61,894 nucleotides of DNA from a virus (IMGVR_UViG_3300044568_000567:1-61894); one strand, 5' to 3'; counted from the stretch's first letter, positions 4,176-60,991 are shown. Translations and numbers: made by a program. The notes: generated by a model not told the origin, from the sequence alone.

Positions 4176-5363
4176 TTACACGCAAGGTGCTGGATTCACA
4201 TCATCTTGGCAACGCTTGTAGACAATTGCCACAACATTCTGTGGACGAATTGGTTGGATAGCGCGTTGGATTTGATAAATATGCTGCCCAAAGTCACCAT
4301 AAAGGTTGCAATCGTTATCACGGAAGTACGTCCACTCCAGTTCACCCATAGCGAGTTGGGGAGCGAAACGGAAAGTTCCTTCTCCAACATAGCTTTCAGG
4401 TACGAGACGCTTGAAGGCATTACCCGCAATAACAAACATGACTTCATACGTGGCTGCAACCCATGCTGGGTTACGGCGTTGAGCGAAACCATTCGTTACG
4501 GCAGTCGAGACGATTGGGTTAACAAGGGTAAGAACACCAGCGACATTTGCGGTAGCGCGAAGGGGTTGTTGGTCGATACCGAATGCGAAACCACGATATC
4601 CTTGGAAGGAGTAACCGCTGATTGCAGTCTCACCAAGTTTGAACGAACCAGTCGTAAGACCGATCAGATCTTCTTTTACGTCCGCATCGTTGCGGAAGTT
4701 CTCGATTTGATCTGCGCTAGCAATAACTTGGAAGAATTCACCTTCAGAGGTAGCGAATGGTTCAGCAAGCATTTCTTCGCGGAGGAACGTTCCAAGTTTG
4801 TAAAGAGTCTTGAAGTTCATAGGAGCATCAGGATTCTTGGCTGCAAACAAGGTGTTGATCTGCTGCATATCACCAGTCAGGTTAGCGGCAAAGGTAGCAG
4901 TGGAGTCCACTACATACTTAATGCCAGACTGAAGGAGATACTGATAACGGATGTCAGCATTGATAAGCTGGAGGATCGTCTTTTCGAGCGATACTTGAGC
5001 TTGAAGGTAAGAACCTTTGAACGCTGTGCGAGCTTGCTTTACGCAAACACGAGGGCCAGCACCACGAAGGGTCTGGAGTTGGAACTGGTATTCAGTCGAG
5101 CCAACAACGTCAGGGGTTGCTCCCACACCGCAGAGGGTGGTGTCGTTAACGAAGGTAGGAGATGCGAGCGAAGCGGCAGGAACTGCCATTTCCTCAACAA
5201 CACTACGCACAACGTCAGAGACGTTAGGAAGCGTTCCACCATCGATGGAGTTGATATAAGGACTCTTACGGGCGAGAACTCGTCCGATTTGTCCGATGAT
5301 GCGGTTCACGTCTTTGCTTGCAAAGTCCTGAATCGCGGCTAGTGAGATACATTCTGCTGCCAT
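4176..5363 (-). CDS. Major capsid protein
   Basis: 395 aa, biased codon usage, downstream of portal and scaffold, own promoter and downstream hairpin. Confidence 0.8.
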   Translation of the reverse strand: MAAECISLAAIQDFASKDVNRIIGQIGRVLARKSPYINSIDGGTLPNVSDVVRSVVEEMAVPAASLASPTFVNDTTLCGVGATPDVVGSTEYQFQLQTLRGAGPRVCVKQARTAFKGSYLQAQVSLEKTILQLINADIRYQYLLQSGIKYVVDSTATFAANLTGDMQQINTLFAAKNPDAPMNFKTLYKLGTFLREEMLAEPFATSEGEFFQVIASADQIENFRNDADVKEDLIGLTTGSFKLGETAISGYSFQGYRGFAFGIDQQPLRATANVAGVLTLVNPIVSTAVTNGFAQRRNPAWVAATYEVMFVIAGNAFKRLVPESYVGEGTFRFAPQLAMGELEWTYFRDNDCNLYGDFGQHIYQIQRAIQPIRPQNVVAIVYKRCQDDVNPAPCV

Positions 5364-9946: not shown

Positions 9947-12358
9947 TTATCCTGCGGTTACTGGTTTAGGTGGTGCAGCAACTTGGTTGACTGCGTTATT
10001 TTGTGATGGATTTTGTGTTCCAACTGCTTCTCCCATTGCGGTAGCTTGTGCAGTAGATGGCCTACGTCCACCTCCTCCACCTCCACCACCTGCTGCTGCT
10101 GGAAATAAATCTCCCTCTGAAATTGGTGCTTGTCCTGCCGTCAGGTAATTAATCGCTTCAGAAACTGCCTTTTTGTATTCGGCAATCTGCTTTTTGTCTG
10201 CACCCTTCGCTTCAGCGTTCTGGACGTGTGCGATAAAGTGCTGAACTGCCGATTGTAGGGGTTTAACCATCTCTGGAGGCATCGACCCTGCTGGAGCGGA
10301 AGAAATGAGCGGGAATAGCTTCTCCATGATGGTCTGGATGTGCATGATATCGTTGTCCCGTGGAGAGACTGGAATGTCCTCACCTGAGATAATGCTCTGA
10401 AGTTCGATAATCTGCTGACGAGTTGCCTCGATTGCCACTGCTTCAACCTGATCTTTCGGAAGGATAACTTGGTTGGCAATAGATTCACCCACTTTGCGTG
10501 ACCAATCGAGCTTCATTAGCTCATCTTGGTTGATTTGTGGGTTACCAGTGTACCTCTGGATCAGAAGATCAAGGATTGCAGCGTCTTGACCTTCGGTTTG
10601 TGGCAGAAGTTCCTCTGCTGGAGAGAATGCCATCAACAAAATGTCGCTAGGTGGCAAATTGCGCTCCAACATGGACAAAACGCATGAAACTGCCTCTTCA
10701 TCGAGGTGTCTAGGGATTTCAAATGGCACTAAGAACGATGGAATCTCGGATTGTGCCTGTTCAAATGCCTCTACAACCTCTTTTTTAGCCCACATTGCGT
10801 TTTGGTTCTGTAAACGAGCAAAATCAATCTGTGTTTTTAGCTCACTTGCGGCTTTAACGTGTTCTGGGTGACAGATTCCACGTTGCATACGCTCAACTGC
10901 TTTGGAATATTGCTTTACCCAACGCATCAGGATGCCTTCGCGAATCTGGTTCTCAACGGCAGCAATGCGATTAACCTCGGATGCGGTCTTATCGCCACCC
11001 GTGATGTTCATAACACTGCTTGGCAGGAAAGTTCCCATCTGGATTTCAGCCAATCCAGACATAAATTGATCCAACTTAATGAAATCTTCCACGTCAGCGG
11101 GGATTGCGGACTGAACCACGTCATATCCCTCTGCGACATAGGCAACGGGATGCATTACTTGTAGAGGAGGAATGCCTGTTTTAGCGGTTGGGCCTTTCTT
11201 AAGTAATAGCATCCCGCGCAAATATGAGTTATCGACAATCAGATTTCTCGCTTTGTCAATAGCAATGTGCGTGTTATACAAGTCTCGTCCTGCACCACGG
11301 GAACTCATCAACGCACCAGAACCAATCTCGATAGAGAATAGCGCGATTGTATCCGACATTCTGTTGTACCTATCCAATTGAGTGCAAATCTCATCTCCGC
11401 TTTTATCATCGAACAAATAGCGGGAAATCTTACCAGTTGGTTCTTTGATGAGCAATTCACCTAGCTCAACGTATTTTGCATCGTTTTCGTAGCTTGCACC
11501 ATAGGATCCTTCTCGCGTCCAGTCCTCATAGCGTCGAGCGTCATCGTCAGAATCCAATGTACGTCCCGCTGGTGTTGCGTTGTTGATTGCTTTTACCAAG
11601 TTGTTAATATGCCAACCTGCAAGCGCGGAAAGTCTTGGTTGCTCCAGCACTGGTAGCAATTCAGCAATCTGGTATCGACGCTTCCTTGCCCAAATCGGTG
11701 TTGAATCCGCTTCTTGTGGAGTCTCAATAGAAAAGAAAGTGTAATCTTGTCTTAAGAACTCTGGTTTCCAGTCGCGAACGTCATCCCAGCACACAGCACA
11801 AAAGCCAAATGTTGTATTCTCATGCGTGACCTGAGCTACTAGATCATCGTGACCCTTCCAGCCCCTGATGCACTTTGTGATCTCTTCGCGGAATACCTTA
11901 GTCTTATGTTCCTCGCTTACTCCCTCTAGTGGATACTTGGAATAGGTAAGTGTAGGTGACTGCTCGATTACTTGCTTAAATGGTGGTTGTAAACGACTAA
12001 CCATCGTAGACAGAAACCCAGTTGGGCGATTACTGCGCCAATTCTGACCCATGCTTTCCAGTTTTTTTGCACTATACGGAGGTTCATTATTTAGCTTCTT
12101 CTGAATAAGTTGGTTCTTGCGGTTTCTCTCAACATTCTGTTGTTTGAGTCTGCGATATGCAGAATGCGCTTGCTGGCAGTCTTTAAACGTGCGTTTAACC
12201 TGCAACGTGTCAGGATTAACAACGTCACCCGTAGCGTTATCATCAACAATCTCCAGTTCGGAAACACGTTGCTTGTCCGATGGTTTCATAATCCGCGCAG
12301 CTTTCGATGCGTAGACGTTTGTGACTTCTGCTGGAATTGGTTTGGTGGTATCTGCCAT
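9947..12358 (-). CDS. Portal protein
   Basis: 803 aa downstream of TerL, KTASEV motif, low-complexity C-terminal tail. Confidence 0.8.
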   Translation of the reverse strand: MADTTKPIPAEVTNVYASKAARIMKPSDKQRVSELEIVDDNATGDVVNPDTLQVKRTFKDCQQAHSAYRRLKQQNVERNRKNQLIQKKLNNEPPYSAKKLESMGQNWRSNRPTGFLSTMVSRLQPPFKQVIEQSPTLTYSKYPLEGVSEEHKTKVFREEITKCIRGWKGHDDLVAQVTHENTTFGFCAVCWDDVRDWKPEFLRQDYTFFSIETPQEADSTPIWARKRRYQIAELLPVLEQPRLSALAGWHINNLVKAINNATPAGRTLDSDDDARRYEDWTREGSYGASYENDAKYVELGELLIKEPTGKISRYLFDDKSGDEICTQLDRYNRMSDTIALFSIEIGSGALMSSRGAGRDLYNTHIAIDKARNLIVDNSYLRGMLLLKKGPTAKTGIPPLQVMHPVAYVAEGYDVVQSAIPADVEDFIKLDQFMSGLAEIQMGTFLPSSVMNITGGDKTASEVNRIAAVENQIREGILMRWVKQYSKAVERMQRGICHPEHVKAASELKTQIDFARLQNQNAMWAKKEVVEAFEQAQSEIPSFLVPFEIPRHLDEEAVSCVLSMLERNLPPSDILLMAFSPAEELLPQTEGQDAAILDLLIQRYTGNPQINQDELMKLDWSRKVGESIANQVILPKDQVEAVAIEATRQQIIELQSIISGEDIPVSPRDNDIMHIQTIMEKLFPLISSAPAGSMPPEMVKPLQSAVQHFIAHVQNAEAKGADKKQIAEYKKAVSEAINYLTAGQAPISEGDLFPAAAGGGGGGGGRRPSTAQATAMGEAVGTQNPSQNNAVNQVAAPPKPVTAG

Positions 12359-17890: not shown

Positions 17891-18355
17891 TTATTGGCAG
17901 GACTCGCACTCTGGATCTTCGATGTGACAAGTGCGCTCCACTTTGATATCTGCCAAGTCATCATCGTCCTTTAGCACAACTGGTTCGTCAGCAACCTCCA
18001 GCTTGTCTGCACGGGCGATTGCCGCTGCGTTGCTGTACTGGTGCTGCGGATACCTCTTCGACAACTTCGCTACATTAGCCTCCATGCACTCGTTAATCGT
18101 CAAGCCTAACTCGTTCAACAGACCAGTCAGGTAGAACAGGATGTCTCCTGCTTCTTCAATCACGTTGTTGATGTCTAATTGCTTCTGGTAGACGCAGTGT
18201 TTCTTTACTGTGTCAAGCAGCTCACCCGCTTCGCCGCTGACTCCCACTGCCATGTGGAGGATGGAGGCTTGAAGAGGTGTTAGCTGGACAAGGATGTCAT
18301 GCCCCGGCTTAACGATTGATTGAACGAATTGTTCGTATGGTGTAGTTAATTTCAT
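17891..18355 (-). CDS. MazG-like NTP pyrophosphohydrolase
   Basis: GVSGEAGELLDTVKK...EEAGDILFY...NVAKLSKRYP. Confidence 0.9.
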   Translation of the reverse strand: MKLTTPYEQFVQSIVKPGHDILVQLTPLQASILHMAVGVSGEAGELLDTVKKHCVYQKQLDINNVIEEAGDILFYLTGLLNELGLTINECMEANVAKLSKRYPQHQYSNAAAIARADKLEVADEPVVLKDDDDLADIKVERTCHIEDPECESCQ

Positions 18356-18906
18356 TTTGTATGTATGTTAAAGTATGCCAAGCCGAAACAACCTGATTCA
18401 GCTAGGTGGACTAACTTTCCATCACTACCTATGCTCTCGTCAAGTATCTTTTTAGTTATCATCTGAGGATGCCCATCATGTGGTTCAATGTCAACCCATT
18501 CAAAGATGCGAAGAACCTTTGCCGCTCGTAGTGCGTTGGCAATGATTAGTGCAGGGTCATCTGTATGCTGCAAGCAATTGTAAATCCAACACTCATCGAA
18601 CCCCTCTTCTACCACGTCCTCACCTCGCATCACCAGACACTCAACACCATGCTCATGGTAGCGAGCGTAAGTCCACTGCGGATACTGGAGCGGATCCACT
18701 ACCAATGCCCTGCCAAGTCCTTTTGCCTTTAACAGCATGGACGTTGGGCCACCACCTATGTCGATCACTGACTTGCCTGACAGACTGAATCCGTAGCCAA
18801 CCTGATGCAGTCCCATGAATCTCGCATAGACATAGTGCTTCTGGTCTTCATCGAACGTGTTGCAGCAGTCTCCCCAGTAATCCGATTCAAACGTGTAGTC
18901 ACTCAT
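18352..18906 (-). CDS. Class I SAM-dependent methyltransferase
   Basis: VIDIGGGP, VVDP, FDECWIYNCLQHTDDP; likely start at 18906. Confidence 0.8.
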   Translation of the reverse strand: MSDYTFESDYWGDCCNTFDEDQKHYVYARFMGLHQVGYGFSLSGKSVIDIGGGPTSMLLKAKGLGRALVVDPLQYPQWTYARYHEHGVECLVMRGEDVVEEGFDECWIYNCLQHTDDPALIIANALRAAKVLRIFEWVDIEPHDGHPQMITKKILDESIGSDGKLVHLAESGCFGLAYFNIHTK

Positions 18907-19055
18907 TTCAGTTCCTCCTTCAGTTTCCTGTAGTGTGCAACTGCTTGGGGCCACTGGTCATGCCAACCTGATGACGCTACTAGTCGATCCGCGCAGTCCT
19001 TCCATCTGTCACGCTCCTTGGTTATCTTGTCTATCTCTTCTGTTGTATCGTTCAT
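18903..19055 (-). CDS. 50-aa hypothetical protein (not in ORF track)
   Basis: MNDTTEEIDK...LKEELK; ATGA overlap with the methyltransferase. Confidence 0.6.
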   Translation of the reverse strand: MNDTTEEIDKITKERDRWKDCADRLVASSGWHDQWPQAVAHYRKLKEELK

Positions 19056-19066
19056 ATTGTTTTTGT

Positions 19067-19098
19067 TTGTGACAAATAGTGGGTAGTATTTGTCACAA
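19067..19098. repeat. Perfect 12-8-12 inverted repeat
   Basis: TTGTGACAAATA-gtgggtag-TATTTGTCACAA. Confidence 0.85.
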
Positions 19099-20238
19099 GG
19101 TTTGTTGTTGATTAGATGGGTAAGTCATTGTCATTGCATCGATTCCGTTGCCATCAGCGTACCAACCTGCTCCGTTGTACACGTCTAGCACGTCTTGGAA
19201 GTACTTCTCGTACCGAGGTGCAACTCGTTCAAGCGTAAAGTTCTCACCAAACGCACGGCAGTCCGCTGGTCTGATCTTGTCGATGTTGTTGATTGCGTCC
19301 ACGTAGTCACCCATCGTGCGGCATCGATACCCAGTGACCCCATGTAAGTTGTTCTCTGCAAATGATCCCCAGTCAGACGTGATGGTTGGTGTTCCGCTCA
19401 ATAGGTTTTCAATCTGTACTCCACCGAATGGCTCGACGTACTGGCTAGGCAGGAATGATGCCTTGGCTTTAGACATCAGTTCCTTGCGCTTAGGAACGTC
19501 AGCATAGCCCGCATACTCGACATGGGGTGGAAATGTATACCCTGCCTCGCATTGACCCGCTACAACCAGTTTCACTCCTGCTCTGCGCGTTGCATCGATG
19601 GCGATATCAACACCCTTGCCGCTATACACCCGGCCAAGGTACAGGAAGTAATCCTCCTTCTTGTCATTGAAGTCGAAATCATCGATGTCAAAGTAGTTAG
19701 GTATCACAACGGAATAGTTATCTTGCTGGCACTGACCTACTGCACCCATGCCGCAGTGAGCGTGATAGATGGCATATGACTCCCAAACCTTCCATTTAGC
19801 CCAGTGACCCCCCGCGTACCCTATCCCCGGCTCAACTACGATCATATCATGTTGGTGTGCATCACATATCGGTCTGACTCCAGACCCCCAAAATGGAAGA
19901 ATAAAGTCGTTCTTTTCCTTTCGAAAACCTACCTCCCGAATGGCATTGGCATAGAACGTCTGGTATGCGTGATCGCTTGTGTTGAACTTGAAGAACGTCT
20001 TGCGCCAGTCATGGCTACCATAACTCTTAGCAAAGTCATCATTGGTCAGGACGCTGACGTGTTCGGTACATTGAAGGTCGCTGTCCTCATGGCCATAATG
20101 GATGACTTCATGGCCTCTGTCTGTCATCATTTTGCCGAATTTGACTACCTTCTGCGTGTAGGCACAGGCATTAAACTCTTTAGATGTAACTGTGTGTGGA
20201 AGCCCCAGTGCATGGAATCTCATTTTTTCTGTTTTCAT
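19093..20238 (-). CDS. Glycosyltransferase family 4 (GT-B)
   Basis: LYLGRVYSGKG, PSQYVEPFGGVQIENLLSGTPTI. Confidence 0.9.
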   Translation of the reverse strand: MKTEKMRFHALGLPHTVTSKEFNACAYTQKVVKFGKMMTDRGHEVIHYGHEDSDLQCTEHVSVLTNDDFAKSYGSHDWRKTFFKFNTSDHAYQTFYANAIREVGFRKEKNDFILPFWGSGVRPICDAHQHDMIVVEPGIGYAGGHWAKWKVWESYAIYHAHCGMGAVGQCQQDNYSVVIPNYFDIDDFDFNDKKEDYFLYLGRVYSGKGVDIAIDATRRAGVKLVVAGQCEAGYTFPPHVEYAGYADVPKRKELMSKAKASFLPSQYVEPFGGVQIENLLSGTPTITSDWGSFAENNLHGVTGYRCRTMGDYVDAINNIDKIRPADCRAFGENFTLERVAPRYEKYFQDVLDVYNGAGWYADGNGIDAMTMTYPSNQQQTL

Positions 20239-20735: not shown

Positions 20736-21224
20736 CTATGCTGAGTTTGATTCCCCGCTCGCTTCGATTCGCATTTGCTTCTCCTCTGGTTCCCTGCCCT
20801 CGATTAGCTCAATAGGTTCAGCGTTGCGATCACCAATGGTGAATGTGACGTTGAGTGGCTTTGCTTGTGTCGATTCGATTTCGATTTTATCGCCGTACTG
20901 ACGTGCGTTCCATTTACCTAGTAAGCGGATACGAGTGTCAATTCTGACCCTCTTCTCCTGAGCATCGAGCATTGGATCATCAGCTATTCTTATGCAGTCA
21001 TCAGCGATTGCGTGAGTGCCTATTTTTCGTGAGAGATGAGATTTATTGCGGAATTCTTCGTTTGAGCATTCCCAACGCCATACTGTTGAGTAGTTTGGCA
21101 TACCTTCGAGATTGCAGATAGATGAGAGTGTTTGACCCATTGCGAGTCTCTCGCAGATTTCATCTCCGAGAGCTTCGTCGTACTTGGGAGGAGTGCCTAC
21201 TTTTCGTGCTGGTTTAAAGCTCAT
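20736..21224 (-). CDS. terS: Terminase small subunit (Sf6-like)
   Basis: EICERLAMGQTLSSIC...MPNYSTVWRW...RVRIDTRIRLLGKWNARQYGDK. Confidence 0.88.
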   Translation of the reverse strand: MSFKPARKVGTPPKYDEALGDEICERLAMGQTLSSICNLEGMPNYSTVWRWECSNEEFRNKSHLSRKIGTHAIADDCIRIADDPMLDAQEKRVRIDTRIRLLGKWNARQYGDKIEIESTQAKPLNVTFTIGDRNAEPIELIEGREPEEKQMRIEASGESNSA

Positions 21225-21582
21225 ATGGTTGCTTGGGTTTAGGTTTACGCTTGGGTAATCCTGACTTCAGTTCGTTGCTCTGCTTGAGTTTTGACTTTGA
21301 CTTGGTTGAACGTGATTTCGACGCTTTCGGGGTTATCGTCTGGGATGAGTTTGGAGTATCTAATTTGGTCAATGAGAGGTTTGCTTCCTCCAGCAAGATT
21401 GTCAACGTCGAGTGTTTTTGTGGAGTAGCGTGTAATTGCGAGAGTGTAGAGCGGATTGCACTTAGCAGTGCAGTCCTTGCTAGGTTCTTTTGCTTTGTGT
21501 ACTTTGACCAATGGCAATTTAGGAGCGTGTTGAGTGAGGGTGTCAAGTAGCCTTCTAGATGGAGGTTTATAGTTGTCTGCAT
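21214..21582 (-). CDS. Overlapping ORF encoding a RusA-like N-terminal half
   Basis: LTPSLNTLLNCHWSKYTKQK motif; the remainder is low-complexity. Confidence 0.55.
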   Translation of the reverse strand: MQTTINLHLEGYLTPSLNTLLNCHWSKYTKQKNLARTALLSAIRSTLSQLHATPQKHSTLTILLEEANLSLTKLDTPNSSQTITPKASKSRSTKSKSKLKQSNELKSGLPKRKPKPKQPYEL

Positions 21583-21649
21583 AGTAGTAGTGTCCGTCTG
21601 GTGCGAGGGAGTAGCCTTTCTCTTTGAGTTGTTCAGTTGTCCAGTTCAT
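21245..21649 (-). CDS. rusA: RusA-like Holliday junction resolvase, catalytic C-terminal half
   Basis: ITRYSTKTLDVDNLAGGSKPLIDQI...IPDD; ATGA-coupled start. Confidence 0.75.
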   Translation of the reverse strand: MNWTTEQLKEKGYSLAPDGHYYYADNYKPPSRRLLDTLTQHAPKLPLVKVHKAKEPSKDCTAKCNPLYTLAITRYSTKTLDVDNLAGGSKPLIDQIRYSKLIPDDNPESVEITFNQVKVKTQAEQRTEVRITQA

Positions 21650-21876
21650 AGCATACCGATTCTAGAGTATTTACCACGAAGCAATCTTTCTGCGGTCTTG
21701 GTTTGTTGTCTCGCGCTTTCAGGGCTTTTGTTAATGAGTTTGCTAACTTGGTTGAATGACCTGTGGTTTCCATCATTAAGTCCATAATAAAGCGTTAGTG
21801 CCGTTTTTAGTTTCTCTGGCAATTGGTTTATAAACGAATCCAGTTGTTCAAACTTTTCTTCTTCAATCAAGTTCAT
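21646..21876 (-). CDS. Stand-alone sigma70 region-4-like HTH protein
   Basis: LPEKLKTALTLYYGL...SFNQVSKLINKSPESARQ...AERLLR. Confidence 0.75.
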   Translation of the reverse strand: MNLIEEEKFEQLDSFINQLPEKLKTALTLYYGLNDGNHRSFNQVSKLINKSPESARQQTKTAERLLRGKYSRIGML

Positions 21877-22069
21877 TGTTCGAATAAGTAATCTTCTGGG
21901 TTGGGATCCTGTTGTGCTTCGATTGTTTTGCCGCAGGTGTTGCACTTGCAGTTGCCGTGATCATCGACGCTCATGACGTTGTCGCAGCACTCTGGTACTT
22001 CGTCTTGTTCGGGTGGGTCATTCCAGTAGTCGTTCATAGCGGGTATAGTTGTACATGGTTGTGTGGGAT

Positions 22070-29965: not shown

Positions 29966-30609
29966 TTTGCAACTGCTGCGAGAAACTTCTCTGGTGATAC
30001 GATAAGGTTGTCACGATACTTGCCAGCGGGAAGATCATTCCACAACTGACCAACTTTGATCTCACCTTTGCTGATCAGATATGCTGTAGCCGATTCAGCT
30101 TTGGTTGCGATTACTGCCTCTACCTTTGTGAACCAGTTTGGATCTTCTTTGGGTGTTACGGGTGATAGTACTTTTGTGACTGTTGTCCTAGCTTGCGGAA
30201 CGCTAGTGGAGCGTCCCATTGCCATCTCGCCATCGTCATCCAAATCGTCAGAACATACCATTACAAGCGATTGCAAGGCATACCTGCGAGCATAACTGAT
30301 TAAAGACCCGATTCCCTGCGGATCTTCCTTCACTGGTTTCATGTATAGACGTGATTTAATCCACTGACCGCTTGAATGGATTAGCATGGATTCAACGTAG
30401 TATCCGCTTTCGTCGTGTGATGGAAGCTGAACCACAGAAAGTCCGTTTGCGGTTAGTGCTGGTCGTACTGTTTCCCAAACCTGCGCCAATGAAGCGTAGT
30501 TGGATTTGAAGAATGGGTTCTTTGCGTCCTTGTGAACTGTTCCGTTCTCTGCCTGTGCTTTTGATAAAGCGATTGCTAGGTCTGCTATGTTTTCTGATTG
30601 TGTGTTCAT
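29950..30609 (-). CDS. erf: ERF family single-strand annealing protein
   Basis: KNPFFKSNYASL, HSSGQW, PQGIGSLISYARRYAL, DDDG. Confidence 0.93.
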   Translation of the reverse strand: MNTQSENIADLAIALSKAQAENGTVHKDAKNPFFKSNYASLAQVWETVRPALTANGLSVVQLPSHDESGYYVESMLIHSSGQWIKSRLYMKPVKEDPQGIGSLISYARRYALQSLVMVCSDDLDDDGEMAMGRSTSVPQARTTVTKVLSPVTPKEDPNWFTKVEAVIATKAESATAYLISKGEIKVGQLWNDLPAGKYRDNLIVSPEKFLAAVAKWEAK

Positions 30610-30953
30610 TTGTTTTGGTTTGTTTACTGGTTGGTGAATTGGTCAAATTTTGAGCATACGTCAAAATCGTCGTGATTCTCGGAATCGTTGTTTTTTTCTT
30701 TTGCCTTCCGTTTATCGCAATATTCGCGAAATCGATGGAGGATGTTTTCCTGACCCAATCGATAGCAAGCGAAGCAGGACGCAAAAGACAACAAGAAATA
30801 TGAAACTGCGAATGTGGTGGTCATTTGTTTTGTGTGAGTACTAGGGTTATTCCAATGATTGCGAATGCTGGTGCGATTACTATGAACGCATCCAGACAAT
30901 GCTGGAGCGTCACAAGCAAAGGGACTGACGTGAATGTTTCGATGATGCTCATA

Positions 30954-34023: not shown

Positions 34024-37000
34024 TTATTTATTTTTCTTTTTTGAAGCTAATACCTTTTGAGTATCTTCGTCAACACGCAAAATAAATCCAGCATTTTTTC
34101 GCATTGCTCCAGCAACAGTTTCAGCGGAACCATCGACCACTGTTTCTCCAGCGTGAGTTTCTCTGTATTTCTTGAATATTTGCTCTGGTTTTACTGGATT
34201 TTTAACCAAGAAATTGTTCCCTTTTTCTGGCCCAAGCATTACCCAATCGTATGCCTCATGCTCAACAAAATCAGGATTAGACCTCATTTCGTCTCTCGCC
34301 TTACGCTCCGCTTTAGACATTGCCGCTTCTTCTTTTGGATCCTTTCCAAAATACAAAGCAAAAATATCTGGATTTTGAGAAAGTTCAACCGCAGTTACAA
34401 TATCAAGGTTTTCACCCTCCCTAAAATCTGACGATTCACGCATAACAAGACTTGGATCAAATTTGCCAAACTTAAATGACAATATACTTCCAATTGCTGA
34501 ACCCCTGTCAGAGAATGTATTCCCAATATTATCAGAAATATACAATGATTTGTTATTTTTTAATAATTCATTGTATTCTTTTATATTAACATATTTTTCT
34601 AATTTTTTATTTGCTTTTTCAATGCTGTTTTCTGCCCAGTTTCCAGTTTTAACATTACTAATTGCCTTTTTAATACTAGAAACTGCTTTAAATATTTCAC
34701 CATAAAATCCTTTGGGAGTAATATCTTCCCTTTCTTTTGTAATTTTATTTATTTTTTCATTTATTATTCTAATCTTTTCTGGATCTTTTTTAGCAGAAGA
34801 CATTTGACGTTTTAAAGCGGTTATAGCAGAACTCATTGCTGATTTCTCTCCTGCAATAATTCCTGCTTGCATGGATAATGAAATGATTTCCTTTTCCCTT
34901 TGGCTCAATTTTGATTTTCGCATCATCTTATCAAGAGTCCTTGCGGTTCGCTTGTTTGATTTATGAGCAATTGGATCCATCAAGTGAACCAAAGCGTATT
35001 TCGCTCCATGAGATGCTAACCTATTTTTAGCCCCAGATACAAAGGTGGATGTCATATTTGCCCAGACTGCCTTGTATTTCTTGCCATCTGGCCCAGTAAT
35101 TGTGACTTGGTTTGATTTAAGGAATGGATGCAATGGGCCACCCATATCTCCACCAGTAGCCCTTTGACGATCCGCCTCAAGAAGAATGACTGGTTGTCCT
35201 TTTAGTTCTTTTATTAAGTCTTTGAACTTTGGAACTTCAAGGTATTCAGGATCGTAAGAGAATGACATTTTTCTTCCACCACCAATATCAATTTCAACAT
35301 TTGTTGCTTTATCCCATTGAAATCCTTTTGCTGGAGTGATTCCTTTTATTATTGTTGTTTCAAAGTCTGGAAGCGGTTCATTTTTTCCAATTGGACGTGC
35401 TGGCATGAACTGCAAGCCAGTTGGTTTTACTCCATTAATTTCAACCTCGCTAACTGGAGAATATCTCCCCCTGCCTTTGCTAGATTCAATGCTTCCTGCG
35501 CCTGAATCAGTAAGGTTTCCAATTCGTTTGGTGAGTTGGTTTCCTGTGAGTCCGCTTGCAAGTTCTCGTTTTTTGAGTTTGGTAGACTCAAGTTTTGTAA
35601 GGTACGCTCCATAAGATTCTGGTTTTTTTCCTGACATTACGATTGAATGCGCCCACAGTGCGGCTTGCACTTGTGAAGGCTCCCAACCAATTTCGTTGGC
35701 AATTTCTGTTAATAATTTTTCCGCTAAATCATACTGCGATTTACTTGGTGTGTCTACTCCAAACAATAGACGAGCAATGTGGCGATCAACAACAACACGG
35801 GTTACATCCCCTTCATTTGCTGCCTTATAGTTTGAAATCTTTCGACCCGAAACATCTGTTTTGTTTTTGATGGCATTTAGGTTACCGATAACTGCATCAA
35901 GATATCCTCCCTTTTTTTGTCCACGCAACCTTGCATCAAATTCTTCACCTCGCATTAACTGACCAAATGCCTTTAAAGCAAGACCTACATTGGCCTTTAC
36001 AGATGATGCTTGAGAAGTAACAGCAAGAATCTCTTGGAATAGTTCAGCATAGTCACCAAAGAAATCTTCCAAAACTTCCTGATGTTCTTTATACCAATCT
36101 CTCCATGATTCTTGACTCAAAGCAGCATCAGTAAGTGCTTTTTTTGTCATTTTTAATTTTAATGAATCTTTGTTTTTTTTGGTTTTTTCTTCTCTCTCCG
36201 CTGGCATGAACTGCAAGCCTGTTGCTCTAGGCAACTCGTCTTGCACTGGCTTATCGTTCTTATCGAGAATCTTTATAAGATTCTCATCGAAGACAACGTA
36301 GTTGTATGTTGGTGCTGTCTCAGCACTTTTAATTTGTTTTTCAAGAGCAGCAAGTTCTTTTTCGCTTGCAGTTAACCAATCTTCAAATTGCTTCCGCATT
36401 TCCCAATCTCTTGGGTTGTTTTCAAGTGTTTTTCGTAATTGCGGAACTTCTTTAAGAAGCTCGTCCCGACGATTGGTATCGGAGGCACTTGTTCTACTCA
36501 TGCCGTCTAGGTAGCGGATGCCGGGGATGCCTGCTGTAAACAATGCTTCTGACGTTGCTTTAGTATTTTCTGGCAATGTATAAACATTATTATCCTCATT
36601 AGTGTTAATTTGTTTACTTAATTCTTGTGCAATATCATTGTAGAACACGCTCATTGGTTGTTCTTGAAAATCTTCGTCTCCAACTAAACCTGAATTTTCA
36701 ACAACTTCGTAAGACTTTCTTGCTAAAATAGCTTGCGTTTTGCTTGCGTTTTTTCTGAATTCTTTATCTTTTAATTGATCTGCAATTTTTGTAATTAAAG
36801 ATTTTACCTTTTCACTCTGCTCACTCAATGGCTTATCCCAATCAAGCAAGTCTTCGTCTTTTACATCGAGATCAACTTTGTAGAGATTGCCTGTTGGTTC
36901 CATGACATCATTTGGCCCAGTCCAAACATCCATAGCTTTTTTAACTTTATCACTTGCTTCAGAATATGTTTTTTGAAATGCTGTATTCCAATCGTCACCT

Positions 37001-40000
37001 TTAGCCAAGTCTGCTCGGACTTGGTAAGCAAACCAAGGGTCTTTTTTTGTTCCAAATTTTGAAAGTGCATCCCTATATTTTTCTCCGACACTTCTTGCCT
37101 GTGCAAAGTAAAGCCCCCATCCATACGCTTGCGCTCCTTCACCAGTGCCTATTTTCTCCAGCTTGAACTTGTCTACGTCAAATGGAGTTCCGTGGAATGC
37201 AGGAAGGAAGTTGATCAACCCAGCGGAGGATACCAATGCGTTGGAGAATGGTTTGATAACTGCGTCTGGAGCAGGTTTTGCACTGGTGGTTATGTCAGAA
37301 GATTGTATGCTTTTTTCTGAGGTAGTAGCACCTATCATCTCTGAACTTTTCGGTTTTTCGGAGATAGTAGGTGTCAACTCCATATCTGGCAGCATAGCCT
37401 TGCCCCGCACAGGAGGCTCAATTTCGCCCAGCGAGAGTGCTTTCGCTCCAACCACCTTGGTTGGTGCGGAAATGCCTTCTAGGGGGCGTATACGCGCAGA
37501 GATCGGCTCGTATTTGGTGGGTTGCTCTGCTGGCATGAACTGCAACTGACCACCACGGACTTTACCTGCCATTTCGGGAGTGATGTTTACACGCCAGATT
37601 GGGGTATCCTTCATGGAAGGGATGGTGTAACCACCCTTGTCAATGTCTGGCCCTTTTTGCATAATGCCAGAGTCAACCTTCTCAACCTTGCCACCCATCT
37701 TTGCAATATACTTGCCAACCTCTTTAGGAAGGATTTGATCGTAGAATCCCTTCATTCCTTCGCCACCGACTTTAAGATCAAGTCCAGATAGTGAGTGATA
37801 TTCGTCACCATCCTCTGTTTCTCGCTTCTTACCTTTGTTTTCTTGCATTTTTTGTGCAAGTTCTTTGCCGAATGTTGCCTCTACTTCAGAGAGTTCCATT
37901 CCTTCTTTTGAAAATACTTCATTCTTTCCTTTTATGGCAGACGCTGAATAAAGACCATCTTCGTCAATTGAATAATCAATTGCATCAACCTGCTTGCTCA
38001 AGTCATATCGTTCGGCTTGCGTATCACCAGTAGTCCAACCAATCCACTTCTTGTCTGACTCCACGGCATCTCGCAATGCGCGTTTGAAAAGTTGGATAGA
38101 CCAGTCTTTTCGGAATGGTGCGTCTGGGATTTTTCCAACAACTGAAGATGATTCTCTTTTAAATGCATATTCAATTGCTGATTCAGCAGAATCTCCTGCC
38201 ATCCCATCTGTTACAAGATTACCTTCAGCATCAAATACTGACCATGTTAAATTCGATCCAGCTTTCCCAGTTTGTTTTGCTGTCCATCCCTTGGGCGATA
38301 TTAAATACCCCTTCTCCCTACCCGCCTGATGCCTGTCAGACTGAAACTCCTCAACAAACAACCCCTCGTTGCCCTGTGCGTCTGTGCGCTCATTGAGACG
38401 CATATGCGCTACATAGTTGGGTGTTTCGGGGAAGTGGGAGGAGATGTAGCCAGCCCTTTCAGATGATGGAATACGAACCAAATCAGACTGCCTGTCAATT
38501 AAACCTCTTAATTGTTTTTGAATTTCGTTCCACTCTGGAGATTGTTGTTCAAATTGAGATTGCTGCTTATTTAATTCAAATATTTGTTTTTTAAGTTTTG
38601 CTTCTTCTTCTACGATTTTATTAGGCATTGTCATCACCACCTCGCGGTAGTTTGCGCCACCGGGGAGTTGGTATTTTTTAAAGCTCGTGCTATCTGAATC
38701 ACCCTCATCTTCTTGACGAATTTCCACACTATCTTCCACTTCCATCCTTAATTCGTTTTCTATTTCGTCATTTAAATCTTCCTTAGAATCGTATCCATCT
38801 TCAAAATTATAATCATAAATACCATATTTACCACTATAAGCATCTTTTTCTTTAAACCATTTTGAGTTCCACTCTTCTAATCTTTCTTTAGCGGATTCTT
38901 CATCATCAAAATGTTCAACCTCATTGTTATAATCATCAAAAATTACATAGTCACTATCATCATACCCTATAGTATCAATAGTCCAGTCTGAAGCAACCTG
39001 AACCACGTTTGGACGATCAATTTGATCAAGTTGATTTTGAACCCAGTCGTATTTTGCATTCTCTGCTTCTTCAAGCGTGTCATAGGACTCTGATGTGGAG
39101 TCATCTGAAACAATCCATTTTGCAGTTCCTTTATTAAGAGTCACCTCTTTAAACTTAACAGCACCTTCATTGCGAAGATACTCCATAACCTTGTCTTTTG
39201 GAACCTTGCCACTGTTCTCCGCTGCAAGACGATCAATCTCACCTAGCACTCCAGACCACTTCAGTTCCTCGGCCTTTGCATTCTGTGGGTTGTTGACGAT
39301 TGCCTTGAGTTGTTCTGGTGACGCAAATTTACCCGTGACTTTCTCGTCGATGGTCTTTTGTAGTCCAGAGTACATCCCACGCTCGGAGGTTGGGTAGCGT
39401 TCTGTTTCCGCTGGCATGAACTGCGTTGCCGATGCTGATACCTCTGGTTCGCTTTCCATTGGTTCAAGTATAGCTTGCGTTGGATCAAACATGGATCGAA
39501 CGCGCAACTTTCCATTCTCTACATCAATGTACTCGGCAGGATGCAATAGATCTTGCTGATGCAATTGTAACTCCAATGGTTCAACATTGCCTTGCGCTGC
39601 TAGTCTTGCTATCTCCGTGTCAATTTCCATTGCCTGAGCGAATTGCTCTGGACTCTGTAATTCGGCAAGAGGATTTTCTGCTGGAAGATAGTTTTTAACT
39701 GCCAACTCATAACTGAATGGCATCTTTGCCAGTGCAGTTTCATCGTACGAATTAATTCTATCCATGCGTCTGGAACGAATAACTACGTCCCTGCTATCTT
39801 GTCCCTTTCGTTTAGGCAAGGTAGTGCGTTCTGGATTCGCATCGCGGGTTTCCTTTCGATAGACATTGAATAGATCGTTGATCCTATTCTTCATTTCCAT
39901 TGCTATCTCAAGGTCTGGATTAAGGCCAATATGCCCCTGCAAGCCTTGTTTGTGGTTATAAAGGTATTGACGCACAGAGTCCCAAAATTTGGTCATGTCT

Positions 40001-43000
40001 CCACCCCACAACCTCAAGTTGCGAGGACGCTTTGCTGCCCAAGCATTAGCCTTGTCGTGCATCCGTGACATCGACATCGTTGTCATCAAGAAGTTGCCTT
40101 GTTTATCAAATTGAAAACCAAATGGGATTTCGGTTCTCATTTGTGGTTGCAATGCACGATACTTTTTGTCTCGTATTGCGGCTTGGTATTCGATCTCTAC
40201 AATACTTCCATCTTTTCGACCCAAGATTTCATTAAAGAATGCAATCTTACGTTTCAGTGATGGAGCAACAAGGTCGTTTGGCAGTGCATTAATTGCAGCA
40301 ACCTGTGTTGGTGAAAGGGTTCCCCGATAGTTTCCGTTCCCTGTATCTTCCAACCTCACTCCAGATGCATCTTCAGGTGCTTCATCGATAGCCTTTCGGA
40401 TTGCCTCTCCACGTTTCTTTGCGCGGCGTTTTGATTCCCTTGGGGAAATAATGCGAGGGGATCCATCTGCATTCCTAGCAATGCGTGTATCAACGCTAAG
40501 AGAAGTCCCGTCAGGCATTGCCTGAAGCGGAATATCAGGCCCAAGTGAAATCACGTTGCCTAGCTCATCGACCAACTGACCATTTGCAAATCGATAGTCA
40601 CTAATGAACGAATCCACCTTCACGTTGGGTGGAATAACAATCTCTTGAGTCTGACCATCTGGGGTTGTCATTTTGACAACTTGTTGTTGCTCGAAAAACT
40701 CGGAATCCTTGTATCGTTGTTGCAATGCACGATTGGTTGAAAACACTGTCAAAGGGATTTCAGCCTCATCCTTAATCGGATCAGAATTGTAAACCAAAGA
40801 TTCATTGAGATCACGAAGACCCCTTTGATATTGGCGCATCATTGCGAGTGCCTCTGGGTTTAGTTCTCCACCAATAACAGATGAAAATTGCCCTTGGTCA
40901 TCAACAATGACTCCGTAATTACGAAGTGCTTCCTTGACTCGTTTTAGCGCACCATTCTTTGTTCGACTTTCAATCCAGTCCACAACAGAACGTCCCACGG
41001 AGTCTAAGTTGTTCCGTAGATTGCCTTGGATTCCACCAGAAAGACCTGCCAACTCTGACAGATACTCTTCTTTCATGTAGTTCCTCAACTGGTCTTGATT
41101 GGCAAAGTTCGACAAGAATGACGCTCCACCAGAGGCATCCATTGCGGCAGCATATTGCAATGCAAACTTATCCAATTCAGAGTCTGGAATTACACCTTTT
41201 TTAACAACTTCAAATGTGCCATCTGCGTTAATTACTTTTTGATCGAAAAGTTCTTTGCGGATTGGTGCAATCATGTCACGAACCTCTTGGAAGTTCGATA
41301 GTGCGTGTTGCATTTCGTGATTGATAACTCGACCAAGGTTAAGTCCATCACGTCCCATTTGAGTTACCAAATCACCATTGATTACAACTGTTGCACCTGT
41401 CTGATTTTGCATCTTCAGATGGTTTGGTTTCCCAGTCTGTTCTGAAATTGCAAACCCTCTTGCGGTAGAGGATCCAGCTACATCTTGTAGATATTGCTTG
41501 ATGGTTTGATCGGCTAAACCAAGCATCTCTTTCTCTGATGGAGACAAACGAGGGTTGCCAACAAGTTGTTGAAGCACACTTTCCGCATCAGTTAATGTCT
41601 TTCCATACAGATTTCGGTAGAAGTCCTCCATCTGATCTGGACGCAGAACCTTTACTTGAATGTTATTCAACCCTGCTGCCGCTCCAGTGGTCTTTGCCAA
41701 GTCCATTGCATCCGTGAAGCTCAATTGAACTTGACGTTTGATTTCCGCTTCAGTTTGCGGAGTCGATTTGTCTAAAGCTTTTCGTTGTTCTGCAAAATTA
41801 TCAATTTGATCTTGGATTCGACGCTCGTCATCCTTGTTTATCTGAGCAACTTTTTTTGCCTCTAGATTTTTGATCTTTAGATCAAGAGCAGATTTGATGT
41901 TGTTGACATTCGACAATTCATCGATGCTTGACATCAATGTTGGATCAGCGGTTTTAATGAATCTCTGAATGTCCGCATCTTCATCTTTACGCAATTGAGA
42001 CGGATCTGGTGTAACAATGGCATCTATCTTTTCAGCAAGCCCAGTTGTTGGATCAATCAAAGCACCACCACGCTCCATTAGTCTTGCTCCACCATACGCT
42101 CCAATACCCGCTCCAACTCCAGCACTATAACCAAGATCACGCGCAGTCTCAATATCAGGCAATCCAAGTGCCACATTCAATACAGCACCATTAACGGCAG
42201 GTTGAATAATAGCGTTAGATTGACGCACTGCCCAGTCAGCAAGCCTTGCGCGTCCCTTGCCACCCATTGCCTGTGGCCCAAAAAGTTTTTTGGTTAGTTC
42301 ACCAGATGTTGGTGCGCGTCCAGCTAGTTCAAACATCCCTCGTCTTCCTTGCCCAGCTTGACTTGCTACATCACCAATAGTCGTTGCAATACCCCTTGTC
42401 ATCTTGGCAGGTAGTTTTGCAGGGCCAACAATTGTATTTGTTGCAGTTTTTACGAATGTATCTGGATCTCCAACCGCATATTCACCAATCTTGCGTGAAG
42501 CACCTTGAATCTTTTCAATTCCAGATTCCAGTCCACCAGCGGTTTTTGCCACTCCCTTTGCAAGTGGTGCAACAACACCTTTTAAAGCTAATTCTCCAGC
42601 CTTGCGTGTAACCTTACCAGTGGCTTTTGCAAATGTGTTGGTAATGCGGTTGGTTCCCGGTAATGAAATCGGTGACAACATTTCACCAAGCATCGAAACA
42701 TTTTCATTAATCTCGTCCTTAGTTAATCCTTGTTCTTTTACCAACTCCTCATAAGCCTTTTTAGCAAGTTCTGCTTCTTCTGGAGTTGCTCCTTGAGCCA
42801 AAGCGGCAGCAGAAGCTAATTTTTGCAGTAATGGATTTTCAGCTAATAGACGAGCAGCATTGTCTGGATCATCAGCATACACTTTTTGAGCGAACTGACG
42901 CATTCCTTCACGAAGCATATATTTCTCAAATCGCTCATCGTTAGACTTTCCAAGCAATTTATCAGTAATGCTGCTTCCAAACATCGAAAATCGAACCACG

Positions 43001-43513: not shown

Positions 43514-45085
43514 TTATTTTTTAGTTCCAGTAACCCCGTTAAAAATATATTTTTGTCCAGACTTTAATTTTTTCCACTCTTCTTGCGATTTAATTTCTAC
43601 AAGATTTTCTTGCGATTGAATAGATTGAAAGTTTTGCGGCATTTCAACAGATTGAATTTGTTCTTTAATTCCTTCTTTTGCCCTTGATACAATATTTTCA
43701 ATCTCATCAATGTTTTGTTTAAACAAAAAGAAACTTAGACTTGGATCAATTGACCCAAGATTAGATGCCAACAAACTTAATTCTTTTTCACTAATCGCAC
43801 CCAAAGCACCACCTGTTGGAGATGCTGATTTCATGTCTGCAAGTTTTTTGAATGCAATATTACCTTGCAGGGTCTTGGTTAGCTTTTCAACGTCCGAAGC
43901 ATCAGTGCCGGGGATATAACTTAGCCAATTTGCCAAACCTCCAACACCGGGTGAAATGCCTTTATAGATGCTCCTAATCTGATTAATGGTGCGAAGCATC
44001 GTATCAATTTCACCAAGAGGCTCTTTTAATGCTTTGACTTGTTGTTTAATTTCACCCTTGGGGATCAAATCATAAGTTACATCACCAACTTGTTTTTTAG
44101 CACTTTTAACTGCTAAATTAGATGGGATTTGTTCTTGTGTTTGTTTTTTAACAGGAGGTTCAACGAAATAATAAGTTTGACCATCAATAATCTGCTGCTT
44201 AACGGGCTTTACTTCATAATTTGGCAGTTGCTTTGCAAGCATTTGATTTGCCATTTCAGCATCTTCCCAGCTTTCATATGGAGCAATCAAATCGTTAGGT
44301 TCATATAATGGAGCAGCAGCGCGAACCTCTGGAGTTGGTGTAACAGGGATTGCAGTACGAACCTCTGGCACAGGTGCTGGAGGAACCATAACACCTCCAG
44401 TTGCGGCTTGAATATTTCTAAGGGGAGGATTTGTAACAGCTGCAATTTGCTCTTGTGAGATAACTGGTTCAAATGGGGCAGTTGCAATCGCTGATGGTTC
44501 TTGAAATGAAATATCAGCCAAAACACCACCCCTATTAAACCTGCTAAAATCTCGCATTGGCAACTGTTGATCAACAGATGACACAGAAGGAAATAGTGAC
44601 GTTGGATCATCAACTGATGTTGGCCCTGTTGGTAATTCTCCATCAACTGAAGGGATAACTATTGGATCTTTGAAAAACCCTTTTCTTTTTGTGTTAATAG
44701 GAACCTTATCTCCACCACGTTCTGTTGTTAAAGATTTAATGTTTGCAAGTCTTGCTGCATTATACTCCAATTCTTCTGGGGTCTTTTCTGATCTGATTTT
44801 AGCAAGTGCTTTGTCTCTTTCAAATTTTAGTGCTTCATCGTCTGCTTTTTGAAGCTTATCATCGTTTGCCTTAATCGCAGAAAAAACAGGTTCAGCTAAC
44901 GCTTGGAACCCCTTTGCAGCACCCATGCTGACTAACTCCTGCTGCGCGGACGGAACCTCGTATTTCGGCATTGGAGTAAACTGAATGCTTACTCCAACGT
45001 CAAGAGGCTTAAGCGCAGAAAGAGGACTCGCCCCAAGACTTGCGGTCTGTGGGGTGAACGAATAGCCACCAGTGGGTAGTGCCAT
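43514..45085 (-). CDS. Putative ejection/DNA transfer protein
   Basis: GNIAFKKLADMKSASPTGGALGAISEKELSLL motif; position in the internal-virion cluster. Confidence 0.7.
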   Translation of the reverse strand: MALPTGGYSFTPQTASLGASPLSALKPLDVGVSIQFTPMPKYEVPSAQQELVSMGAAKGFQALAEPVFSAIKANDDKLQKADDEALKFERDKALAKIRSEKTPEELEYNAARLANIKSLTTERGGDKVPINTKRKGFFKDPIVIPSVDGELPTGPTSVDDPTSLFPSVSSVDQQLPMRDFSRFNRGGVLADISFQEPSAIATAPFEPVISQEQIAAVTNPPLRNIQAATGGVMVPPAPVPEVRTAIPVTPTPEVRAAAPLYEPNDLIAPYESWEDAEMANQMLAKQLPNYEVKPVKQQIIDGQTYYFVEPPVKKQTQEQIPSNLAVKSAKKQVGDVTYDLIPKGEIKQQVKALKEPLGEIDTMLRTINQIRSIYKGISPGVGGLANWLSYIPGTDASDVEKLTKTLQGNIAFKKLADMKSASPTGGALGAISEKELSLLASNLGSIDPSLSFFLFKQNIDEIENIVSRAKEGIKEQIQSVEMPQNFQSIQSQENLVEIKSQEEWKKLKSGQKYIFNGVTGTKK

Positions 45086-60451: not shown

Positions 60452-60991
60452 TTATGTATGATCGACTAGTAAGTATGGTATGGTTTTTTGCTCGTATCGA
60501 GTCATTTCTGAGTAGACTAAATTGATGAATCCGTCCCATTGCGGCGGGTAGATCGTTTGGCAACCCAGCGACGATGTGCTGTTGTATCCTCCCCGATGGA
60601 TGTTAATAGCGATTCCCATATCGTCTCCAATCCCATCCCGCGTGACTGGCAGTTCTTCCTTTGGGTTAGCAGGTCGAAGCGCAGGGTAACCACCTCCGGG
60701 TTTACTGATGCCATGATTCCCCTTACGGAACCTATGAATGCCCGTTTTAAGCACCGCAATACCCTTCCTGTGAACTGAAGGATCAGTATTCGCGTTGAAA
60801 GTAGCATGAACAGAAGGAGATAAAAGTATAATCGCATCATCATAGATGCCTCTTTGATTGCCTGATGGAGCAAATGTTTCAGAGTAGTATCCACGGATTC
60901 CGACGAGTGCAACACGATCAACGATCCCCGATTTTATTACCATCGAGAGCGTCTTCTCCTTCGCTTGCTGCGGTCTGGAGTTTGGAACCAT
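60452..60991 (-). CDS. Putative endolysin, L,D-transpeptidase (YkuD)-like
   Basis: INIHRGG...SSLGCQTI motif; follows holin-like genes. Confidence 0.7.
   Translation of the reverse strand: MVPNSRPQQAKEKTLSMVIKSGIVDRVALVGIRGYYSETFAPSGNQRGIYDDAIILLSPSVHATFNANTDPSVHRKGIAVLKTGIHRFRKGNHGISKPGGGYPALRPANPKEELPVTRDGIGDDMGIAINIHRGGYNSTSSLGCQTIYPPQWDGFINLVYSEMTRYEQKTIPYLLVDHT

Follow-up and report, generated by a model that had tools for sequence, protein, structure and literature searches.

A RusA-like resolvase fold apparently divided between two overlapping reading frames in a complete phage genome and its relatives

Gene organisation of the locus

The DNA analysed here, IMGVR_UViG_3300044568_000567, is referred to as the window: the whole stretch of 61,894 nucleotides (nt), which its source record describes as a complete phage genome of 61,894 bp with direct terminal repeats. 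The minus strand carries nearly every long open reading frame (ORF) of this lake phage, among them the two that are the subject of this study and that together seem to encode a Holliday junction resolvase of the RusA-like type. ORF A (21214-21582) and ORF B (21245-21649, positions counted from the first letter of the window) both lie on the minus strand and share 338 nt (21245-21582). Their ATG codons begin at 21582 and 21649, a distance of 67 nt or 3x22+1, so that the codons of B start one base 5' of those of A; ORF A is the +1 frame of B, and the step from A to B is -1. An initial annotation, made by a model from the sequence alone, had proposed a resolvase split over these two frames, and the layout it described (a same-strand overlap of 338 nt, the two ATG codons and the offset of -1) agrees exactly with the coordinates.

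ORF A encodes 122 amino acids followed by a stop codon (21214..21582). It opens with a hydrophobic strand and continues with ...TPSLN..L..HW..., and its residues 1-50 (21433..21582) would form the part of a RusA-like fold that we call the N-half, with strand 1, the turn at PSLN..HW, and helix 1; residues 51-122 (21217..21432) form a basic tail rich in Ser, Thr and Lys. ORF B encodes 134 amino acids followed by a stop codon (21245..21649) and can be divided into three parts: an N-terminal motif, MNWT.EQL..KGY..APDG.YYY, in residues 1-23 (21581..21649), a linker in residues 24-66 (21452..21580), and a RusA-like C-half in residues 67-134 (21248..21451), which contributes strand 2, helix 2 and strands 3 and 4. 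The C-terminal part reads ...LDVDNLAGGSKPLID...IPDD... and contains D81-x-D83-N84 (21398-21409), K90 (21380-21382) and D104-D105 (21335-21340). By translation, the initial annotation was also accurate in assigning the N-terminal strand and PSLN..HW to A and the DxDN, K, D and IPDD elements to B.

An AlphaFold2 model of ORF B follows the same division. The N-terminal motif is predicted as a short helix and a beta-hairpin (helix 5-10, strands 13-15 and 21-23) with a predicted local distance difference test score (pLDDT) of ~72-76, the linker (24-66/67) has no secondary structure and a pLDDT of 50-67, and the C-half consists of a strand (68-76), a helix (82-98) and two strands (110-118 and 126-133) with a pLDDT of 85-90. 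The N-terminal motif of B recurs in distant relatives. At two two-frame loci on contigs of Lentisphaeria metagenome-assembled genomes (MAGs; L073 and L074), a zinc-ribbon-like CxxC...CxxC segment replaces it, and because this segment stands in the place of the motif, the N-terminus of B may be a variable small module. Another B-type relative (L187:1567-2223) carries a C-terminal extension of ~140 amino acids.

Relation to RusA

The C-half of B matches the RusA-like family phrog_1682 of PHROG at E=1.6e-4. With Pfam, neither ORF A nor ORF B of the window matched RusA (PF05866) at E<=10, nor was there any other meaningful match. The gathering cut-off of this family, 22.8 bits, was reached nowhere among the proteins tested: two relatives that carry both halves in a single frame scored 20.4 and 20.1 bits, and the distant B-type protein P0010 scored 19.8 bits. 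When PF05866 was compared with 51 C-halves, five matched at E<=0.1, the best at 0.003. No other RusA was found in the complete phage genome with PF05866 at E<=1. Profiles of the A-half and the B-half retrieved no RusA from the PDB sequences, their best matches being unrelated (E 0.15 and 0.015), and a search of the ESM Atlas with A residues 1-52 gave no usable match.

Residue conservation in the C-half is strict. D81, D83, N84, G87, K90, D94, I102, D105 and Q116 are invariant in 36 diverse relatives, as are D22, D24, K31 and D35 in a trimmed alignment of 51 sequences. In RusA of Escherichia coli the acidic catalytic residues and the lysine (D70, D72, K76 and D91) lie in strand 2 and helix 2; the residues of B match these by position, not by a residue-by-residue alignment.

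The relatives that encode both halves in one ORF (P0121, P0144, P0130, P0125, P0092, P0150 and the locus L071) connect the two parts with a known fold. The profile of the N-half matched the N-termini of six full-length single-frame proteins with independent E-values (i-E) from 2.7e-10 to 1.4e-5, among them P0144 with an i-E of 2.4e-8 in a set of 150 proteins. One of these relatives, P0150, has 289 amino acids and a long C-terminal extension. P0144 matches the profiles of both halves, and its model reaches a pLDDT of 95.4, with little alignment depth at the end of helix 1, where the rows of A had been cut before their mis-aligned part. Helix 1 of this model spans residues 23-40 and is followed by a loop of 11 residues and by strand 2 at residues 52-59; the C-half of B has the element order of its second half. 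Using Foldseek, the top seven matches of the P0144 model were all E. coli RusA chains, with template modelling (TM) scores of 0.64-0.71 and 21-25% identity, and the next matches had a TM score of ~0.35. Through this single-frame relative, the modelling gives clear evidence of a RusA fold for the family.

Conservation of the two-frame layout

In a HMMER search of 1.84 billion cluster representatives, 637 proteins matched ORF B at E<=1e-3. Among the best 150 of these 637, most have the architecture of B, with a short N-terminal motif, a low-complexity linker that includes a recurring RLPDPEPK-like stretch, and the C-half. In frame B, the RLPDPEPK-like stretch corresponds to the GYLTPSLN of frame A. 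ORF B belongs to a 90%-identity cluster of 107 members, some of which carry the name 'Holliday junction resolvase RusA-like endonuclease' in the source databases. The exact sequence of ORF A is absent from a collection of 15 billion proteins, and the gene calls in the protein collection do not include it. INPHARED phage records gave no match, either by DNA (1701 nt, distant mode) or with the ORF B protein.

We compared 305 related loci, which comprise 196 unique sequences of the region and were all found with B-type queries. By profile, 274 loci have the N-half in the +1 frame of the C-half, and no locus has it in the same or the +2 frame. With a looser motif, the N-half was located in the +1 frame in 295 of the 305, and three more loci, on one contig, carry TSLN there. 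The remaining seven comprise five loci that are cut at the 5' end, the single-frame locus L071, and L072 on an Acidobacteriaceae MAG contig, in which the N-half and the C-half are spread over three frames with internal stops and which is either a decayed copy or the result of assembly errors. Without the five 5'-truncated loci, 300 loci can be assessed, and 298 of these have the two-frame layout, in many independent assemblies and down to ~25% identity in the halves. Fourteen loci come from genome collections; six of these lie on Verrucomicrobiota and two on Lentisphaeria MAG contigs, an assignment by binning that may not indicate the host. In IMG/VR, 60 loci have an ORF B with 68-94% identity, and both frames are open in all 56 that are full-length, from independent metagenomes.

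Such openness exceeds what chance would provide. The +1 frames of 34 long genes of the window contain 739 stops in 15,355 codons, and only three of 773 open runs reach 122 codons. Synonymous recoding of B codons 68-134 with the codon usage of the window left frame A open in 0.4% of 20,000 trials, and when A codons 1-45 were recoded with the same codon usage, frame B stayed open in 4.7%. In the third frame, 8-16 stops are present in every one of 46 unique close relatives, which we refer to as the window family.

A single-nucleotide error in the assembly, or a gene that was broken recently, would also distribute one fold over two frames, and L072 does look broken over three. At the window locus itself, the contigs of the best DNA run are identical to the window over 21100-21649, and no single-base indel was found at 21410-21500 in the contigs of two DNA and two RNA-library runs. 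Together with the recurrence of the layout in independent assemblies and the purifying selection in both frames described below, these comparative data refute an assembly error as well as a recent pseudogene, and the probability that we leave to this explanation is vanishingly small. Neither the assembly indel in the reads nor the uniformly single-frame relatives that the initial annotation had held against a genuine split were found.

Frame-specific selection and the junction

The frame in which variation is tolerated changes along the locus. In the window family, the variable sites fall on B third positions in B codons 1-20, on A third positions in A codons 1-43, and from about B codon 70 again on B third positions. 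In the region of the N-terminal motif, the entropy amounts to 0.33-0.69 at B third positions versus 0.03-0.28 at positions 1 and 2. Residues 1-50 of A are almost invariant and the B residues read from the same bases vary, with the variability at B first positions, which are the third positions of A: Leu CTC/TTA and Ser TCA/TCG switches keep PSLN constant in A and change the residues of B. Further downstream, an Arg CGC/AGA switch keeps ITR constant in B and changes the residues of A, and in the tail of A the second codon positions are the most variable. By this measure, protein-level selection acts on B from residue 1 to 22/23, on A from residue 1 to ~50, and on B from Y68 (or residue 67) to the end, and the tail of A and the linker of B are unselected, the latter being a 'shadow' of the N-half of A. 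At the level of sequence comparison, both frames are shown to be conserved under frame-specific selection, each with its own start, and the selected parts overlap.

This overlap is the junction (21433..21448), where one set of nucleotides encodes the last part of helix 1 in A (S45-L50) and the first part of strand 2 in B (Y68-T73). The strong case comes from a sister family of 134 unique sequences with a motif spacing of 110 nt. Here, conservation in frame A extends through L24, S26, A27 and L28; that of frame B sets in at about R22, L25, I27 and R29, and both sets of residues are encoded by the same bases. Three of the B third positions of this junction have entropies of 0.11, 0.19 and 0.06 versus at least 0.72 at all 54 downstream codons (Mann-Whitney p=0.0003). 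The corresponding values in the window family are 0.26, 0.00, 0.26, 0.00 and 0.15 for the B third positions of Y68-I72. As judged from these entropies, about six junction codons are constrained in both frames. Since the selected segments of A and B share these bases, a single -1 fusion cannot accommodate strand 2 together with the end of helix 1.

The spacing of the motifs can be compared between the two types of gene. From the P of PSLN to the D of DxDN, two-frame loci span 110-134 nt (36.7-44.7 codons), and single-frame relatives have 51-52 residues by hand count. Compared with the 110-nt family, the window family has seven extra codons between PSLN and DxDN (21433-21476, minus strand), and the succession of TALLSAI and RSTLSQL in A resembles a tandem duplication, 21 nt long, of the segment read in both frames.

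As one way to join the halves, the initial annotation had suggested a programmed -1 frameshift, with CAA-AAG and CAA-AAA as candidate slip sites. Translation would start at the ATG of A and slip back near codon 44-45, and would yield a fused RusA-like chain of ~113 amino acids. The step from A to B indeed has the required sign, in the window family the DNA for helix 1 up to I43 almost adjoins that for strand 2 beginning at Y68, so that a fusion with a very short loop is conceivable, and the database proteins P0078 and P0012 resemble such fusions. However, these two proteins have one member from one contig each and their junctions lie at different places, as expected of sporadic indels. Both proposed slip sites were rejected: CAA-AAG occupies A codons 30-32 and precedes most of helix 1, and CAA-AAA lies past strand 2 and is not conserved. 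A canonical X_XXY_YYZ heptamer in frame A is present in just four of the 196 unique loci, in each case at A codon P+16, where a shift would come too early to retain helix 1, and a homopolymer of at least six bases is present in 16 of them; the switch region itself consists of a conserved GCAATCC followed by four variable bases. In the window sequence, the 91 nt past the junction fold at -10.5 kcal/mol (z=-0.94), which 39 of 200 shuffled sequences equalled, in a calculation of structures other than pseudoknots. Besides, selection in frame A runs on beyond the start of strand 2, and A itself continues for 72 codons, so the zero frame does not end soon after a slip site. In every locus, frame B extends upstream without a stop and has a selected N-terminal motif there, from an upstream start that a frameshift would not need; across the N-half of A it is open in all 186 loci with a stop in view, the nearest stop being at least 55 nt upstream of the conserved Pro codon of A. 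Finally, a fusion in the main family would leave ~13 residues between HW and strand 2 versus ~29 in the single-frame model (H22-W23 to 52). A programmed frameshift is therefore unsupported, and we consider it unlikely.

A second alternative would be that ORF B alone is a working nuclease, completed by self-association or by its N-terminal motif, and that A encodes a small protein with another role or reflects a conserved non-coding constraint. All putative catalytic residues are indeed located in B, and the sources call B a RusA-like endonuclease. On the other hand, the conserved part of A is homologous to the N-half of the single-frame relatives and varies at third positions in the manner typical of coding sequence, the linker of B is not selected as protein, and B alone is modelled as half a fold, for which Foldseek found no PDB match at E<=0.001. 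We give this alternative a slim chance at best.

Start codons

Start codons are available for both frames in most loci. Upstream of strand 1, ORF A has an ATG in 185 of the 196 unique loci, only a GTG or TTG in 10, and none of these in one; in L055 and L057 this ATG has moved and is not lost. ORF B begins with ATG in 180 of 196, and its start lies upstream of that of A in 189 of 195. In several lineages, such as L241, L273 and L298, a stop in frame A immediately precedes the start codon of A. In L298 and L300, a single GGAGG precedes two possible start codons that lie 4 nt from each other in TTGA[AG]TG, a TTG in frame B and an ATG or GTG in frame A, ~35 nt upstream of the PSLN codons; the internal TGA is the stop of the upstream gene. 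In these loci, both chains may start from a single ribosome-binding site.

These starts also bear on the idea that a single chain is made by two shifts, from the N-terminal motif of B by +1 into the N-half of A and by -1 back to the C-half of B. The order of the selected frames, B, A and again B, is what such a chain would produce, and in seven complete unique loci of one sublineage frame A lacks an ATG. The general conservation of the A start, its relocation in L055 and L057, and the frame-A stop right before it in L241, L273 and L298 all speak against this reading; it meets the same problem at the junction as a single shift, and it needs two recoding sites, for neither of which there is a signal. 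We regard it as very improbable.

Genomic context

The tail of A probably is dispensable for the fold, because its sequence is unselected and because it ends early in some lineages (L069 and L070); in L070 it stops 26 nt before DxDN. In the window family, its frame is nonetheless kept open, with a probability of 0.004 of being open by chance. Past the stop of B, the A-only stretch (KRKPKPKQPYEL and the stop; 21214..21244) reaches its stop 8 nt into the gene of the terminase small subunit. The spacer after the B stop has a length of 11, 14, 20, 23 or 29 nt in 43 of the 46 relatives, and these lengths are all 2 mod 3, with the A stop at a constant place. Of the other three, one has a 33-nt spacer and an earlier A stop, and two are without the motif. 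Its open state may indicate that the basic tail has a use or that translation of the terminase gene is coupled to that of the resolvase.

The pair overlaps both flanking genes, all on the minus strand, by a few bases each. Upstream, a gene similar to sigma-factor region 4 (21646-21945; phrog_351, E=2.7e-5) shares its stop with the ATG of ORF B in an ATGA sequence. Downstream, the terminase small subunit (20736-21224; phrog_1482, E=6.6e-30) starts with an ATG at 21222-21224, and the TAA of ORF A lies 8 nt past its first base. Beyond it, the region 17891-20238 (minus strand) encodes a MazG-like pyrophosphatase (phrog_229, E=7.9e-35), a phrog_3603 protein and a glycosyltransferase (phrog_3408, E=6e-193). 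The longest ORF of the phage genome encodes 3162 amino acids (34024-43512, minus strand).

Elsewhere in the window, further ORFs of 98-134 amino acids lie in alternative frames of the same strand, within or across longer genes (60517-60921, 44287-44646, 30392-30784, 10141-10488 and 4196-4492, all minus strand). These could be due to chance from strand composition or could be more overlapping genes.

Discussion

The explanation that in our view best accounts for these data is that ORF A and ORF B are overlapping genes, translated separately, and that their products come together as a single RusA-like fold. Based on comparative sequence analysis and modelling, we put its probability at roughly 0.7. 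The alternative in the initial annotation, a two-chain enzyme from dual-coded DNA, fits with the separate starts, with the selection of each ORF on its own part and with the overlap of ~6 codons between these parts. Both ORFs would be carried on one mRNA and translated independently. From its own ATG, A would supply strand 1 and helix 1 of the RusA-type fold, followed by the dispensable basic tail. From an ATG 67 nt upstream, B would supply the N-terminal motif, a linker that runs unselected through the region of A, and then strand 2, helix 2 and strands 3-4, including all putative catalytic residues (DxDN, K and DD). The two chains would join non-covalently as one RusA-like domain and, because RusA is a dimer, probably as an A2B2 particle. 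Located directly upstream of the terminase small subunit, the pair would provide a particle that cuts Holliday junctions or branched DNA before packaging. We infer the production of both chains, their mutual binding and the role of the complex as a junction nuclease.

Several observations weigh against two separately translated genes. Taken alone, the test for dual constraint in the window family, with only 46 sequences, is not significant in comparison with the downstream codons (p=0.17), and the strong case comes from the sister family. The predicted complex of A 1-60 and B 60-134 reached an interface score (ipSAE) of 0.49 versus 0.02 for the best control, with a partner pLDDT of at least 69 and agreement between runs in 100% of contacts; this was graded as 'weak support', against a calibration in which 58 of 80 solved complexes and two of 110 mismatches reached the mark, and in which only seven of the 80 solved complexes, but both mismatches, fell at or below 0.60. 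In addition, the score, for which our own alignments were used, may reflect likeness to solved RusA structures. The loci were found with B-type queries and their counts are no unbiased census of the wider RusA family, and among the loci compared there is no lineage in which A and B are separate, non-overlapping genes. The sublineage of seven loci that lack a frame-A ATG would have to use TTG or some other start codon, and by reading the sequence no clear Shine-Dalgarno motif is seen before the ATG of A in the window. Finally, RNA-library contigs span the A/B region, but carry-over of DNA is possible, and they are no proof of transcription or of either protein.

With E. coli RusA (PF05866; PDB 1Q8R, 2H8C and 2H8E) the two overlapping genes share the order of elements (strand, helix, strand, helix, two strands) and the DxDN...K...DD pattern of the family at the places of the catalytic Asp and Lys residues. 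Unlike E. coli RusA, which is one chain from one frame, the fold here would be divided after helix 1 between overlapping frames, B has an additional N-terminal motif and linker, and A has an additional tail. The single-frame relatives are homologous in both halves and share PSLN..HW and DxDN, whereas they consist of one ORF in which 11 loop residues lead from helix 1 to strand 2. The Rz/Rz1 spanin genes of phage lambda, the nearest analogue known to us, are a case of a gene in the +1 frame within or across another gene, in which both genes have their own starts and the products bind each other for a common task. Like them, A and B are two same-strand frames with separate starts, and in the sequence comparisons both A and B show selection at the protein level; unlike Rz and Rz1, which are two separate folds, A and B would be complementary pieces of one domain, and their junction would be dual-coded. 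Genes with a programmed -1 frameshift, such as the tail chaperone G/GT and dnaX, have a conserved heptamer, an early stop in the zero frame and no independent start in the -1 frame. A and B share with them two overlapping frames that are -1 apart and serve one function, yet none of these three features applies to A and B.

With regard to the literature, the list of genes 'known to contain a frameshift' in the PRFect paper names 'RusA/RuvC', and references 35-42 of that paper include one item on a junction resolvase, the identification of ruvC from 1991. The paper on cluster P mycobacteriophages mentions RusA as a gene that is present. A search of the main texts of open-access articles gave, among the papers listed, no description of RusA or another resolvase that is split between overlapping frames. 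The enzyme family is well known, as are overlapping genes in phages, but this genetic layout appears to be undescribed in the literature searched.

On balance, we lean towards the wider view that a single small enzyme domain obligatorily consists of two chains encoded in overlapping frames, with a dual-coded cut point; that a large group of freshwater phages, several of them on contigs binned with Verrucomicrobiota and Lentisphaeria, normally have this frame-split form and not the single-chain one; that the second gene is missing from public annotation; and that the tail of A in the window family may couple terminase translation to the resolvase. If true, the proteins labelled 'RusA-like endonuclease' in these phages would be half an enzyme, and gene callers would miss the A half, since that half is encoded on the same stretch in a different frame. 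The claim is directly testable with two plasmids and a junction-cleavage assay. For frameshift predictors, the locus calls for caution, as the layout resembles a recoding site and lacks every recoding signal. If true, it would also be a clean natural case of one fold that is distributed over two overlapping frames and kept by selection across hundreds of lineages, and as such it would bear on the origin of overlapping genes, on the limits of dual coding and on the reassembly of split domains.

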